DNA of 64,000 nucleotides from an uncultured Sutterella sp. (GTDB lineage: Bacteria; Pseudomonadota; Gammaproteobacteria; Burkholderiales; Burkholderiaceae_F), in contig CAJMKD010000007.1 of NCBI GenBank assembly GCA_905213905.1, positions 4,388-68,387 of the forward strand. The letters run 5' to 3'. The notes under the pieces were generated by a model, which had not been told where the DNA came from, made no database searches, and saw nothing but the letters and a program-made list of their open reading frames with translations. Below are positions 25,554 through 29,952 of this stretch, piece after piece; positions within the stretch are counted from its first letter, which is position 1; every line of letters starts with the position of its first letter. Both the position numbers and the translations under genes were made by a program.

Positions 25554-25769
25554 GGATGGAAGAGAGGTGACATGATGGATTCGGACGATTCGACGGCAAT
25601 TAGTCTAGGGGATCTTCCGAATCCGTTGACGGTTGTTGTCGAATTCCAACGAGGCGAAACGTTAAGCCGCGTGTGCGGCCTTGACATGGCGCCCTCGTGT
25701 TGAATTCCCTAGATGAAGGGCTAGATTCGATTTATAATTTAGTAAACTGAATATTTTATAGGGCAAATA

Positions 25770-25778
25770 CCCCCCCCC
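25770..25778 (+). repeat. Homopolymeric poly-C tract (C9) in an AT-rich promoter region upstream of the autotransporter gene
   Basis: ggcaaataCCCCCCCCCgtacag, about 110 nt upstream of ATG 25888, embedded in a locally AT-rich segment (tttataatttagtaaactgaatattttat) inside a about 68% GC genome. Confidence 0.6.
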
Positions 25779-25887
25779 GTACAGCCCCCTCTACGATGAC
25801 TCCGTGGCCCTGCGGCAAATCACTGCGCGCAGGGTCGCGCCGTCTGCGCGAAGCAGGCGGACAGGAAATATTTCTTGGAGTTTATCG

Positions 25888-28800
25888 ATGAACAAGAATT
25901 TCAAGGCCACGAAGACCGTCCTGGCAGTCGCTGTTGCGTCTCTGATGGCCGGCGGCGTATTTGCGGCGGATGATACCGCTACAGATACCGTTGTAGATGC
26001 CGATAAAAGCGTTTCAATCTCGTTCCAGGGCAAGGCGCCGGCTTCGGCTGATGCCGTGCAGGGTGAGTTTGTCAAGATCGAAAGCAACACGGCTACTGTC
26101 AAGGACCACACAGGTGCTTTTGGTGCAACGGCTTCCGCCAACTTCACTCTCACGCGTGATGACAACAAGTTCACGGTTGCCAATGGCTCGCTTTCCGGCT
26201 TTACGGGCAAAGTGAATGAAACGACGGACACCAACCACGGGCTTCTCTTTACCGTCGGCAATGACGAAACGCTCGCACTGACGGGCATGTCGATTTCCGA
26301 CAACGAAGCCTCCGATGCCCGCGGCATGATTCGTGTCAACGGCGGAATGCTGACGGTTGAAGATAGCTCGTTCACCGGCAATGCAGGTGTTCTTGGCGGC
26401 GCGCTCAACTTGGTTAAGGCCGAAGAAGGAACCAAGATCAGCAACACGACTTTCAGCGGCAATGAGGCTGGGTCTCATGGCGGCGCAGCCTACGTGACTG
26501 GCGGCACTGTTGTTTTCGAGAACGTCTCATTCTCCGGCAATAAGGCTGGATTGCAGGGCGGCGCGCTTGAAATCGTCGGCGGCGAAGATGTTCCGACGAC
26601 CGTCACGTTGAAGGATGTCACCTTCTCTGGCAACAGCTCCACTATGCCCCAGGGGGCTGATAAGACGAACGGCTTCAGCGGCGGCGCCGTGATGGTGAAT
26701 TCCGCGAAAACGAAGCTGACAGGTGAAAATGTTGTCTTCACCGGGAACAAGGCAGAAACGTCCAACGGCGGTGCACTTGCAGTGGCTAACGGCGGCGAAG
26801 CTTCCATCGTCGGCGGCTCCTTCTCGGGGAACTCAGCTGCTACGGGCGGTGCTGTTGGGCTTTGGAATGGCACTGCTACCTTCACCGATGTCGATTTCCG
26901 CAACAACACGGCAACGGGTTGGGGCGGTGCAGTCCGTGCCGACAATAGCAGCACGGTAACGTTTGCGGCTGTAGAAAAAGATGTCGTTATCGCCGGCAAT
27001 ACGGCTGGCGATGCTGACACCGATACCGGCAAGAAGTATGGCTATACGGGCGGGTTCCTCCATCTGCAGGCTGGTTCTGATGCTACGTTCAATGTAGCCG
27101 AAGACCGCACGATGACGATCGGCACTTCGGCGTCGGCAAAGAACGTCGATACGATTACGTCGGTTGAAAATACTTCGACGATCAATAAAACCGCCGACGG
27201 CAAGCTTGTCATCAACTCTTCGACCGAAGCATTCGCCGGCACCTTTAATGTTCAAGGCGGCTCTGTTGAGCTTGCCACCGGCATCGGCGAATTCAGCATT
27301 CTCAATATTGCCAAGGGATCTGAGCAGGATTCTGAAGCTACATCTTCCACTTTCAATGTAGAAAGCGGAGCATCTGCCTCCATTGGAAAGGTGACGGCAA
27401 CGAAATATGCCGTGACCTATGACGTCGCGACTGGTGCGGACCTGACAATCAATGCGATCTCGCTTCAGAAAGACAACAAACTGAAGCTCACCAATGCTGG
27501 TGAACTGTACCTCGGCGACATTACTGTCGCTCAAGATGCTGCGTTTGCAGATTCCGCAATCTCGAATACCGGGACCATCTACACTTCGTACAAGAATCTT
27601 GTAACGCTTGGCGAAGAAGCCGATTGGTCTGACGCCATCCTCACTGCGTTCGGTGAAGCGTATGGCAATGCGCAGAAGGGTTCGCTGTATGAGACAGATT
27701 TTGCCGGCAGATACACGCTTGATCAGCTTCAAAAGGCGGAGTCTGCCTTCGGCAATTTCTCTTTCTCAAATGTGAATGCCACGGCTTATAAGATCGTTGA
27801 CGGCAAAGAAGTCAACGTGACGCTCGATGAGGCCAAGGGGCACAACCTCGGTCATACGGTTGTTGATCAGACCGGCGGGACGATTGCAAATGTTGTTGGC
27901 GACTATACGGCTGTCGGTGCGGTCAACTTCGTGCAGGAGAATGCCGATACGCCGATTGAAGCGGTCACCATCAGCAATACACAGTTGGCTTTGACGGGCG
28001 AATCTGCTTCCGGAAAAGTCTTCAAGGGCTATGAAGGTCAGATCGATTTCTCCGGATCAATTATTCAGTTCGGCAGCGAGCAGGTTGATGTCACTGTCAG
28101 CAACGACTTGACCCTTTCGGGGAATACGGATGTGACGCTTGTCGGCAATACCAAGCTGACCGGCGAAGTGGTCGCTGATGCTAAGGAAGACTCTATTACC
28201 GTTCAGGGTAACGCGACGATTCATGCCATCACCGGCGGCACGGTGACGGTCGATGACGGCATCCTTTTCGTTGAAGACTTTGTGATGCCTGAAACGAACG
28301 GTCTTTCCACTTTGGCTAATGGCGCCGGCCAGTCTCAGCCGATTCAGCCCATTACCCCGCAGGTAGCGGCAGCTCCTATTACGACCGATTACCTTGTTAA
28401 AGATGGGACGGATCTTTCTTTGTTTGCGCCGAATAATCAAACGGCTGTCAATGCGCTGACGGAAGCGTACAACCGGCTTGGCGAAGGCTACGAAACCGGC
28501 TTGTACCTCGGCAAGGCTATCGTGCTTGGCGGCGCAGGGATCTCGGTTGGCGGAACGACGGTGAGCGACGGCCAGTTCAACGTTGCAGCCAATTGTTTTG
28601 TGGTGATGGATCTCAATGCCATCGCTCGGACTGGCTACAACCCCGAAGGTCCGCTCGCAATTGTGAACGCGTCGAGCTCGACTCTATCGACTGGTGCACA
28701 AGTCGTTTTGACGGGGCTTAACAATAAAGTTCTCGAGAAAAACGGCGATGGCAATTACGTTCTTCATTCTGGCCTGACGGGGTTGGGGGCTAGCAACCTG

Positions 28801-29952
28801 TCTCTTGGCACGCACTTCTATACAAAGGATGCGAATCAGTTTGTAAACGGCGACTACACGTTTATTGCCAATCAGGCCCTGCTGGATGAATATCAGGACT
28901 TCAATCTCTACTACGTTCTTGAAAACGCCGTTAAGGAAGTCACGCCGGGTCAGAATGCCATGGTTGATGCCATTTTCTATGGTGATCTGAACAATGAAGA
29001 TTGGAATGGCGGACTGCGTGATCGTGTAATTGACGAGCTCAACATCGCGACCAACATGGCCGTCGCCTCCGGCGCTTTCTCGACCGCTGTCGACATCAAC
29101 AACGAAGTCTGGAAGGCTCTTGACCGCCGCATGACGCTCGCGAACCTCAATGCGCCGCGTGCTGCTTACGGCGTTACGCCGTGGGTCGATGTGATCGGCA
29201 CGACGAACGAAGCCAAGGACATCTTCGGCGGTGCAGGCTACGAAGCCGATCTCTACGGTGCCGTGCTCGGCGCCGACTGGACGGCTCCGTGCGGCGCCAT
29301 CGTTGGTCTCGCGTTCTCTGTCGGACAGGCGGACGGGAACTCCGTCGACCTCGGCACGAAGGTGGACAACGACGCCGACTTCTACGGCATCAGCCTCTAC
29401 GGTTCGCATCAGATCGGCAGCTTCAACGGCAAGATCGACATCGGCTACGTCTCGGTCTCGAACGACCTCTCGACCCACACGATGCTCGGCAAGTTCGACG
29501 AATCGCTTGACGCCGACATCTTCACGATGGGCCTCGGCGCCGAGTACCTCGTCAAGGCCGGTTCGCTCAATGTTGTTCCGCACGCTGGCATCCGCTGGTC
29601 GCGCATCGACATGGACGACAGCAAGTACGGCGCTGACTACGACGCGATGAACCTCTTCCAGATGCCGATGGGCGTGACGTTCTCCGGCACGTTCGACATG
29701 ACGGGCTGGAAGGTTGCCCCGATGCTCGACCTCTCGGTGGTTCCTGCCTTTGGCGACAAGGACGCCGTGGCGACCTACACGGGCGGTATCAAGGACACGA
29801 CCCGCGTTGTCGACACCAATCCGATCCAGATGACCTTGGGCGTCAACGCTCAGGTTGATGCCTGGACCTTCGGCGTCAACTACGGCCTCACGGCTGGCGG
29901 CGATGAACGACTCAATAACTCGTTCAACCTCAATGCCCGCTACACGTTCTAA
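25888..29952 (+). CDS. Autotransporter outer-membrane protein with chlamydial Pmp-type (GGA[ILV] / FxxN) repeat passenger
   Basis: Start at MNKNFKATKTVLAVAVASLMAGGVFA (signal peptide). Passenger has reiterated FTGNAG / FSGNEA / FSGNKA / FSGNSS / FTGNKA / FSGNSA / FRNNTA with GGALNL / GGAAYV / GGALEI / GGAVMV / GGALAV / GGAVGL / GGAVRA motifs (POMP repeat). C-terminal about 300 aa is a beta-barrel translocator ending in aromatic ...NARYTF. Confidence 0.85.
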   Translation: MNKNFKATKTVLAVAVASLMAGGVFAADDTATDTVVDADKSVSISFQGKAPASADAVQGEFVKIESNTATVKDHTGAFGATASANFTLTRDDNKFTVANGSLSGFTGKVNETTDTNHGLLFTVGNDETLALTGMSISDNEASDARGMIRVNGGMLTVEDSSFTGNAGVLGGALNLVKAEEGTKISNTTFSGNEAGSHGGAAYVTGGTVVFENVSFSGNKAGLQGGALEIVGGEDVPTTVTLKDVTFSGNSSTMPQGADKTNGFSGGAVMVNSAKTKLTGENVVFTGNKAETSNGGALAVANGGEASIVGGSFSGNSAATGGAVGLWNGTATFTDVDFRNNTATGWGGAVRADNSSTVTFAAVEKDVVIAGNTAGDADTDTGKKYGYTGGFLHLQAGSDATFNVAEDRTMTIGTSASAKNVDTITSVENTSTINKTADGKLVINSSTEAFAGTFNVQGGSVELATGIGEFSILNIAKGSEQDSEATSSTFNVESGASASIGKVTATKYAVTYDVATGADLTINAISLQKDNKLKLTNAGELYLGDITVAQDAAFADSAISNTGTIYTSYKNLVTLGEEADWSDAILTAFGEAYGNAQKGSLYETDFAGRYTLDQLQKAESAFGNFSFSNVNATAYKIVDGKEVNVTLDEAKGHNLGHTVVDQTGGTIANVVGDYTAVGAVNFVQENADTPIEAVTISNTQLALTGESASGKVFKGYEGQIDFSGSIIQFGSEQVDVTVSNDLTLSGNTDVTLVGNTKLTGEVVADAKEDSITVQGNATIHAITGGTVTVDDGILFVEDFVMPETNGLSTLANGAGQSQPIQPITPQVAAAPITTDYLVKDGTDLSLFAPNNQTAVNALTEAYNRLGEGYETGLYLGKAIVLGGAGISVGGTTVSDGQFNVAANCFVVMDLNAIARTGYNPEGPLAIVNASSSTLSTGAQVVLTGLNNKVLEKNGDGNYVLHSGLTGLGASNLSLGTHFYTKDANQFVNGDYTFIANQALLDEYQDFNLYYVLENAVKEVTPGQNAMVDAIFYGDLNNEDWNGGLRDRVIDELNIATNMAVASGAFSTAVDINNEVWKALDRRMTLANLNAPRAAYGVTPWVDVIGTTNEAKDIFGGAGYEADLYGAVLGADWTAPCGAIVGLAFSVGQADGNSVDLGTKVDNDADFYGISLYGSHQIGSFNGKIDIGYVSVSNDLSTHTMLGKFDESLDADIFTMGLGAEYLVKAGSLNVVPHAGIRWSRIDMDDSKYGADYDAMNLFQMPMGVTFSGTFDMTGWKVAPMLDLSVVPAFGDKDAVATYTGGIKDTTRVVDTNPIQMTLGVNAQVDAWTFGVNYGLTAGGDERLNNSFNLNARYTF

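Follow-up and report, generated by a model that had tools for sequence, protein, structure and literature searches.

A length-variable poly-C tract joined to a conserved box upstream of a Pmp-type autotransporter gene in gut Sutterella

The autotransporter locus

The DNA analysed here, called the window in the following, is a stretch of 64,000 nucleotides of contig CAJMKD010000007.1 (assembly GCA_905213905.1, positions 4,388 to 68,387 of the forward strand) from an uncultured Sutterella sp. It contains a gene for an autotransporter of 1354 amino acids which is preceded by an uninterrupted run of nine C residues. The tract is located on the plus strand and is separated from the ATG at 25888 by 109 nt (Table 1). 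Its length differs among nearly identical assemblies and it is joined to a sequence box that is also found in front of other Sutterella autotransporter genes. The present analysis deals with this tract and with its possible role as a switch of autotransporter expression.

Table 1. Features of the autotransporter locus in the coordinates of the window.
Feature	Position	Strand	Remarks
TATAAT hexamer	25733..25738	+	Candidate upstream promoter or part of the AT-rich upstream region; all alleles of the locus
Conserved box	25757..25769	+	TATAGGGCAAATA, core WWTAGGGYWWAY; abuts the 5' side of the tract
Poly-C tract	25770..25778	+	Hypermutable simple-sequence repeat; C9 in the window, length varies among assemblies
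TACGAT hexamer	25792..25797	+	Proposed -10 hexamer, conserved as TA[CG]G[AC]T; predicted start at about G25804
Structured 5' leader	25804..25887	+	Hairpin 1, 25804-25838; hairpin 2, 25840-25860; hairpin 3, 25862-25877
Autotransporter gene	25888..29952	+	Type Va, 1354 amino acids; signal peptide, seven Pmp-type repeats, putative beta-helical passenger, beta-barrel
Intrinsic-terminator-like hairpin and T-run	30025..30058	+	Follows the autotransporter gene
Gene of the two-HTH (helix-turn-helix) protein	30085..30468	+	127 amino acids; candidate dedicated regulator, putative function

Judged by its domains, the gene product is a type Va autotransporter with repeats of the type known from the polymorphic membrane proteins (Pmps) of Chlamydiae. 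By inspection, 25888-25965 encodes a Sec-type signal peptide (MNKNFKATKTVLAVAVASLMAGGVFA, cleaved before ADD) with a basic n-region, a hydrophobic core and a small-x-small cleavage motif. The original prediction had proposed a hidden Markov model (HMM) search of the protein, and all three models concerned scored above their cut-offs. The autotransporter beta-domain of Pfam (PF03797) matched residues 1099-1333 (29182-29886) with an E-value of 5.9e-29 and 102 bits (cut-off 26). The repeat models PF02415 (Chlam_PMP) and TIGR01376 (POMP_repeat) reached 42 bits (cut-off 20.6) and 34.8 (cut-off 15), respectively. The protein ends with the aromatic C-terminus ...NARYTF. Seven F[ST]GN...GGA[LV] units were found in register at residues 162-350 (26371-26937). 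They comprise six GGA[ILV] motifs, one GGAA and seven FxxN motifs; in 2000 shuffled passenger sequences the mean number of GGA[ILV] motifs was 0.35 and the maximum 4. The repeats cover about 190 of the about 1070 passenger residues. Thus, the Pmp-repeat autotransporter of the original prediction is supported by the HMMs and the beta-domain, while its description of the passenger as built from such units throughout is not.

In chlamydial Pmps a middle domain lies between the repeats and the beta-barrel. This domain was not detected in the window protein, for which Pfam at E<=0.1 gave Autotransporter and Chlam_PMP only. The AlphaFold2 model of residues ~30-580 is all-beta with a predicted local distance difference test score (pLDDT) mostly above 90. 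The top Foldseek matches in the PDB are all right-handed beta-helices (Ag43, HxuA, PL6 lyases, tailspikes, Vag8 and pertactin), the best with an E-value of 3.7e-3 and none reaching 1e-3. Clustering at 90% identity places the window protein in a group of 38 sequences (P0001), though an exact look-up revealed no recorded gene with exactly the window product. PF02415 is present in nearly all of the 120 listed relatives, and the few which are named or could be placed are from Sutterella. Consequently, the earlier statement that Pmp repeats are rarely annotated outside Chlamydiae does not hold. An adhesin role of the autotransporter is suggested by analogy.

The passenger-coding part of the gene (26900-29100) has a GC content of 0.455-0.585; that of the beta-barrel part (29100-29900) is higher, at 0.60-0.65, like that of the neighbouring genes. 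This contrast fits a mosaic or exchanged passenger. Two alleles of one locus beside NiFe hydrogenase genes are present in L024:152-3122 and L025:4004-7397. The leader (97% identity) is shared, and so are the beta-barrel end of the gene, the two-HTH gene and the genes farther downstream (96.7%). Their passengers exhibit no nucleotide similarity, and Pmp repeats are present in one only. This looks like the replacement of a passenger cassette by recombination.

A C9 run about 110 nt before the start codon, AT-rich surroundings and a perfect TATAAT had been named in the original prediction, and all three are present in the sequence. Between 25600 and 25899 the GC content drops to 0.485-0.49, compared with about 0.56-0.65 in the flanks. 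C9 is the longest G/C run of the window. The only other C run of at least 7 is a single C7 at 12260; C runs of at least 6 occur six times in 64 kb, and G runs are never longer than 5. The remaining long homopolymers of the window are a T10 run at 55640-55649 and an A8 run at 61151-61158. Dinucleotide-preserving shuffles yielded 0.26 expected C9 runs per window, and 19 of 100 shuffles contained at least one. A lone C9 is therefore not improbable and lies within chance expectation, and the significance of the tract comes from the comparative data and not from its presence.

Tract length variation and the conserved box

The locus was recovered from 16 further independent assemblies, one of which (L016) has a gap at the tract. 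All tract lengths are those of assembly consensus sequences. In the 16 measured assemblies, window included, we observed C8 twice (L010 and L015), C9 three times (the window, L002 and L020), C10 six times (L012, L013, L014, L017, L018 and L019), C11 three times (L005, which equals L006, L011 and L021), and C12 (L004) and C14 (L003) once each. In nearly every pairwise alignment the tract was the sole internal indel, with 0-13 substitutions over 3.5-9 kb. L003, L004 and L005 encode an identical protein, yet their tracts are C14, C12 and C11. No substitution at all was found among L017-L021 over 3.5-6.8 kb, yet these contigs have C10, C10, C10, C9 and C11. Runs SRR30169995-SRR30170017 gave identical sequences with C9, C10 and C11, which, like the contig breaks at the tract, hints indirectly at length heterogeneity within a clonal population. 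The A6, T6 and T7 homopolymers of the same loci were invariant. Changes in the number of C residues are orders of magnitude more frequent than mutations in the flanking DNA. The original prediction had called for a comparison of tract lengths; the tract is not invariant but ranges from C8 to C14 among near-identical assemblies, and the Pmp HMMs match, so that on both points the result agrees with what had been predicted.

Seven further assemblies (L026-L032) contain a second autotransporter locus. They encode an identical 1693-aa ESPR/Pmp autotransporter (P0040) and differ by 0-3 substitutions over 6.6-13 kb. In these assemblies GATATTAGGGTTTAT is followed by 10, 10, 18, 15, 9, 8 and 18 C residues, respectively. 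The strains with this locus seem to be S. wadsworthensis-like.

Homopolymers are difficult for sequencing and assembly, and the length differences might be artefacts of this kind. Illumina reads are error-prone in long C/G runs, homopolymer lengths in short-read assemblies may err by about 1 base, especially at low coverage, and several of the contigs are of low coverage (about 2-8x by their record names). Contig or scaffold breaks lie in or beside the tract in L016, L021, L023 and L032. However, a difference of 10 nt between C8 and C18 in otherwise identical 10-kb sequences is far above consensus error. Two runs of one study agree with each other, DRR832781 giving C18 and the contig of DRR832783 starting inside an 18-C run. 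The coverage of contigs with longer tracts was good, with 67x for C12 and 17.7x for C14, and differences of this size at such coverage are not consensus noise. Moreover, T6, T7 and A6 of the same loci never vary. An artefactual origin of the length differences is thus highly improbable. What an artefact at this site looks like is illustrated by L016, where a spurious poly-G run of 26 nt and a scaffold gap of ten Ns are inserted at the poly-C (L016:2843-2880), either during sequencing or during scaffolding; this is an example of how such loci become corrupted in public assemblies.

The tract directly follows the box TATAGGGCAAATA. Its 12-nt core WWTAGGGYWWAY has one match in the 64-kb window, compared with 0.02 expected. 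Each of the 19 loci that have the box contains one match to the core, always directly 5' of poly-C. The core and the tract were found together in four autotransporter lineages, namely the window type, L001, L025 and L026, and box and tract recur before Sutterella autotransporter genes in unrelated genomic contexts. In L001 the arrangement is ATATAGGGTTAATA-C9; here the best-matching segment of the autotransporter has about 52% identity with the window protein, and the neighbour genes are different. L025 has TGTATTAGGGTTAACGA-C12. L022 has TATTAGGTAGAAATA-CCCCACCCC with an interrupted tract, presumably a locked, stabilised allele, and the contig of L023 starts with C10. On the 3' side of the tract, sequence conservation across the family is lost. 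One locus does not fit the association of tract and box: L024 has C7 without a box on its 48-nt left flank, which is a contig end, and may be a chimera or a real variant. Several autotransporter lineages have retained the poly-C as a tract, joined to the conserved box. Since a hypermutable tract has been retained, fused to one box, across proteins that are only 27-52% identical, selection appears to act on the tract itself.

Neutral slippage at an intergenic mutational hotspot without regulatory role would also produce a variable tract. The wide spread of lengths (8-14 in the window type, 8-18 in L026-L032), which shows no sharp optimum, would agree with this, as does the chance level of C9 in the window. 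A neutral homopolymer should decay, however. Here runs of at least 7 C have persisted, in every case joined to this box, in lineages with diverged proteins and diverged flanking sequences. G/C runs are otherwise strongly avoided in the window, as seen from the counts given above, and the position of the tract is fixed, at about 85-110 nt ahead of the start codons of genes for outer-membrane proteins. We therefore regard a tract without function as improbable.

A scan of genome contigs returned one relative only (L001), and a pattern scan of metagenome contigs returned one additional copy only (L010, with C8). In viral contigs the pattern of box and C8 matched 23 times. Only about 9 of these matches are independent, which is about the number estimated from the information content of the pattern, and they belong mostly to unrelated low-GC phage families. 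A family of low-GC environmental phages (L033, L034, L037, L039-L043, L048, L053 and L055) shares GGGTTAGTACGTAAGGG-TAGGGTTTA-C9, and two smaller phage groups (L036/L050-L052 and L049/L054) also have TAGGGTTTA followed by C8 or C9. These occurrences of TAGGGTTTA and poly-C are probably unrelated to the Sutterella box. A different case is the IMG/VR contig L047 with a GC content of 0.54. On its reverse strand, at about 1026-1276, TTGTAATTTTTCATAGGGTTAA-C10 is located about 180 nt upstream of a gene whose product starts with MKKTLAAVAVLGAFAGSALAADVQL, a porin-like signal peptide. This sequence hints that the module of box and poly-C may precede genes of further outer-membrane proteins.

Promoter, leader and flanking genes

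In the original prediction the tract was placed in the spacer of a promoter containing the perfect TATAAT. The tract begins 31 nt downstream of this hexamer, which rules out TATAAT as a -10 element with the tract in its spacer; this part of the prediction had to be abandoned. The hexamer is kept in all alleles of the locus and is not conserved in L025 and L026. Two other hexamers were rejected as -10 elements because no lineage offers a usable -35 for them, TAGGGT inside the box and a TAC-type hexamer right after the tract, which also lacks the final T.

The sequence that we propose as the -10 element is TACGAT. A hexamer of the form TA[CG]G[AC]T, with T1, A2 and T6 invariant, is found in five lineages, where it follows the tract at 13-17 nt and precedes the first leader hairpin by 5-7 nt. 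Transcription would then start near G25804. The C9 tract would extend from -34 to -26 in place of a -35 element, and because poly-C occupies this position there is no -35-like sequence at the right distance from TACGAT. The box would be centred at about -41 (for C9) and might bind an activator or the alpha subunit of RNA polymerase.

Three contigs from three samples bear on this placement. L007, L009 and L008 start at 25810, 25815 and 25817, respectively, 32-39 nt beyond the 3' end of the tract; for two of the three the coverage is 655-822x. In L008 an Illumina adapter is fused directly to 25817; two contigs of the project carry an adapter at a genomic end. L009 spans 25815-30018, and its 3' end lies just 5' of the terminator stem. 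The three contigs look transcript-shaped, as an RNA-derived assembly would give with the usual 5' loss of about 6-13 nt. They come from one ENA project (ERZ218195xx, ERZ21824291) together with L004, whose 3' end is at 30492.

Several observations weigh against a start at G25804. A consensus promoter scan of 25450-30200 found no plus-strand promoter near the gene. The other end of L007 (32706) is not at the best predicted promoter of that region. Contig L004 of this project runs through the intergenic region without a break. The distance between box and hexamer is not uniform either, being 22 bp in the window (C9) and 23 bp at the modal C10. Finally, sigma-70-like pairs upstream of the box, including the perfect TATAAT, could put the tract into the leader.

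The last point leads to an alternative, in which transcription starts at the upstream TATAAT, at about 25745, and the hypermutable tract is part of the transcribed leader. Its length would then act on the RNA, for example if the tract were a C-rich, G-poor loading site for Rho whose size adjusts the degree of premature termination, or through altered spacing between elements in the leader. Poly(C) is a classic strong cofactor of Rho. In a position weight matrix (PWM) scan the best sigma-70 pairs were upstream of the box in every lineage; in the window type (TAGATG-17-TATAAT, with a weak -35) and in L001 (TAGACA-17-TATACC) they both end 31 nt before the tract. In addition, the 5' segment CGATGACTCC of the window and L025 could pair with the Shine-Dalgarno region, which needs a start upstream of 25798. 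The continuity of L004 would suit this start as well. However, the PWM scan yielded only AT-rich candidates upstream of the box, and their positions are inconsistent (31, 31, 40, 45 and 63 nt before the tract), with -35 sequences that are weak and not conserved. The pairing with the Shine-Dalgarno region is absent from L001, L022 and L023, no Rfam family matches the region, and the contigs with 655-822x coverage start at 25810-25817 and do not extend up to the tract. We are not aware of any case in which a leader homopolymer of variable length acts through Rho. A start at about 25745 is thus rather unlikely, and the -10 element at TACGAT, which the hexamer and the contig ends point to with moderate probability, is preferred.

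With TACGAT as the -10 element, the distance between box and hexamer can be compared among the lineages. It is 25-26 bp in L001, L025, L022 (with the interrupted tract) and L023. L026, at C10, has this distance too, provided that GAAACT is taken as its -10 hexamer. At the window locus this distance would correspond to C12-C13, where the highest activity would be expected. C9 and the modal C10 may therefore be low-expression states, which is a prediction from the spacing.

When folding begins at 25804, three consecutive hairpins start at the first nucleotide of the leader. The fold has a free energy of -46.1 kcal/mol and a z-score of -5.3, and 0 of 200 shuffled sequences folded as well. Hairpin 3 (AGGAAATATTTCTT) is the copy of a conserved palindrome, AAGAAATATTTCTT, at this locus, and it touches the Shine-Dalgarno sequence GGAG at 25877-25880. 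The motif CAAGRAAWWTTTCTTGGAGTTT is nearly invariant in the leaders. L001 and L022 have the same three hairpins with different helix sequences; in L023 and L025 hairpins 2 and 3 are kept and the first only in part. A hairpin at the 5' terminus is known as an mRNA-stabilising feature. An Rfam search of the leader gave no match at E<=1, and a scan of viral contigs for the leader palindrome gave 5 unrelated low-GC matches only. An upstream open reading frame (ORF) at 25796-25891, which overlaps the start codon (ATGA), was taken as a chance occurrence because it is absent from L001, L022 and L023.

Among the alleles, the terminator-like sequence behind the autotransporter gene hardly varies; one substitution was found, in L017. 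About 25 nt after its T-run is the start codon of the two-HTH gene. Its product matched HTH_23 (E 8.7e-14) and HTH_Tnp_1/HTH_28 of Pfam. The two-HTH gene is found behind the autotransporter gene in the window type, L001, L022/L023 and L024/L025, while the surrounding genes differ. A database search retrieved 15 relatives only, of which the sole named one is from Sutterella faecalis. The protein could not be given a name, as there was only sub-threshold similarity to the N-termini of IS transposases and to sigma region 4. In the L026 lineage, which has box and tract, the palindrome and the HTH gene are both lacking. On this basis palindrome AAGAAATATTTCTT and the two-HTH protein may be partners, which is speculation.

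Upstream of the locus and on the same strand lie a gene for a membrane-fusion protein and a gene for an AcrB-type RND (resistance-nodulation-division) pump ending at 25553. Directly after the pump gene is a 43-codon ORF (25572-25703) with a ribosome-binding-like sequence, GAGAGG. Its 3' half lies in a segment that diverges between alleles and it is probably not a gene. Beyond the two-HTH gene there are convergent genes for a phosphoribosyltransferase and an amidohydrolase. An AT-rich array of TATGATA/TATCATA (30497-30593), with a spacing of 11 nt and including the perfect palindrome TTATCATAAATTTATGATAA, separates the two-HTH gene from the phosphoribosyltransferase gene. The heptamer occurs five times in the 64-kb window, all in this array, and is absent from the loci of the other lineages. 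The array looks like a set of operators or iterons.

Proposed switch and comparison with known systems

Taking tract, box and putative promoter together, we interpret the locus as a contingency switch of the simple-sequence type that would act on a surface autotransporter gene of gut Sutterella (Betaproteobacteria, Burkholderiales, Sutterellaceae), an interpretation which comparative sequence data make moderately probable. Slipped-strand mispairing would alter the distance and the helical phase between box and -10 element. Each C gained or lost would shift the box by 1 bp, that is by about 34 degrees relative to the -10 element, and transcription of the adhesin-type gene would thereby be switched on or off or changed stepwise. 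The mRNA would start with a stabilising 5' hairpin and would carry the conserved palindrome beside the ribosome-binding site, and the co-located two-HTH protein may act on this palindrome. Cells within a population would then differ in their repertoires of surface autotransporters, which could be useful against IgA, phage or changing niches.

Sutterella is common in the human gut and has been linked to IgA degradation and inflammatory disease. To our knowledge, the ways in which Sutterella vary their surface have not been studied. Phase variation in gut commensals is known mainly from the invertible promoters of Bacteroides. In the full-text literature searched, we found nothing relevant on phase variation, homopolymers, autotransporter regulation or Pmp-like proteins of Sutterella. 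Systems of this kind are well known; a module that is linked to a box and spread over a gene family appears not to have been described from a common gut commensal. It suggests a betaproteobacterial commensal which uses a homopolymer switch in the style of pathogens across a large autotransporter family. If so, the switch would account for differences in adhesion, IgA or phage targeting from strain to strain and from cell to cell, and metagenome assemblies would systematically break or mis-size such loci. WWTAGGGYWWAY followed by at least 7 C would be a simple signature for finding them, and the locus would offer a direct, testable parallel to the Bordetella fim promoter.

A wider scheme can be drawn from the same data. 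Box and poly-C might be a genus-wide cassette before many genes of outer-membrane proteins, namely Pmp-type and ESPR-type autotransporters and possibly a porin (L047). Each gene would flip independently, which would give a combinatorial surface repertoire per clone. In one subfamily the two-HTH regulator would be expressed by read-through of the terminator and act on the palindrome as feedback. The cassette may also share ancestry with the box and C-stretch of the Bordetella fim genes. If the scheme is true, it would represent the first description of a simple-sequence 'phasome' in a prevalent human gut commensal that is coated with IgA. With all its parts, feedback included, the scheme is tentative and rather doubtful.

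The comparison with Bordetella, made already in the original prediction, proved apt (PMC1891110, PMC10172299). There, the fimbrial subunit genes fim2, fim3, fimX and fimN of B. pertussis and B. bronchiseptica are preceded by a conserved 'fim box' and a C-stretch (PMC1891110, PMC10172299). The tracts have 10-15 C in fim2 and 13-18 in fim3 and reach C19-22 in B. bronchiseptica, and an interrupted tract, C6TC3, is present in B. parapertussis (PMC1891110). The gain or loss of one C abolishes transcription, as the fit between RNA polymerase and promoter-proximal BvgA~P is lost (PMC10172299). Both systems belong to the same order, Burkholderiales, and have a long poly-C before the gene of a surface structure. 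In both the tract is joined to a conserved box common to paralogous genes, which is a likeness of layout. Its length is polymorphic between strains, interrupted tracts occur, and the predicted place of the Sutterella tract is likewise the -35 region between box and -10 element. In contrast to the fimbrial subunits of Bordetella, the Sutterella genes encode type Va autotransporters. Furthermore, BvgA~P is known as the activator in Bordetella, whereas activator and start in Sutterella are predictions from sequence, and the Sutterella module includes a structured leader, to which a linked two-HTH gene is added in one subfamily.

Among other Betaproteobacteria, Neisseria meningitidis has promoter homopolymers at opc (poly-C), porA (poly-G) and fetA (poly-C), which lie in or beside the -35/spacer region of outer-membrane protein genes and give graded or on/off expression by slipped-strand mispairing. 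In opc there is no recognisable -35 where the poly-C sits. The Neisseria cases resemble the Sutterella locus in having a G/C homopolymer before a gene for an outer-membrane protein. Unlike Sutterella, they concern single genes without a family-shared box, and pathogens instead of a gut commensal.

The chlamydial Pmps are adhesins, and some pmp genes of C. pneumoniae vary by a poly-G in the coding region. They share with the Sutterella protein the type Va organisation, the tandem GGA[ILV]/FxxN repeats and the membership in a multi-gene family of surface proteins. The Sutterella protein differs in that it is from a betaproteobacterium, has seven repeats in a passenger of 1070 residues and has no detected middle domain; its homopolymer is upstream of the gene and not coding. 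By sequence, the likeness to chlamydial Pmps is at the repeat level only and is not orthology.

Among autotransporter genes of Burkholderiales, tcfA and bapC of Bordetella have the most variable G/C homopolymers of the genome (PMC1891110). These tracts lie in the coding region and act by frameshift, unlike the tract described here; the coding sequence of the Sutterella gene contains no tract of this kind. One allele of the Sutterella gene is interrupted within the coding region. In L017, at position 5652 (about 28540 of the window), and also in L018-L021, the gene is split into ORFs of 904 and 448 aa by an ordinary inactivating frameshift; the allele belongs to one strain lineage and was seen in six contigs from several runs. 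A coding-region homopolymer switch was ruled out here, as the split is caused by the insertion of 1 bp, an A, in the non-repeat sequence GGCGAC-GCAGGG.

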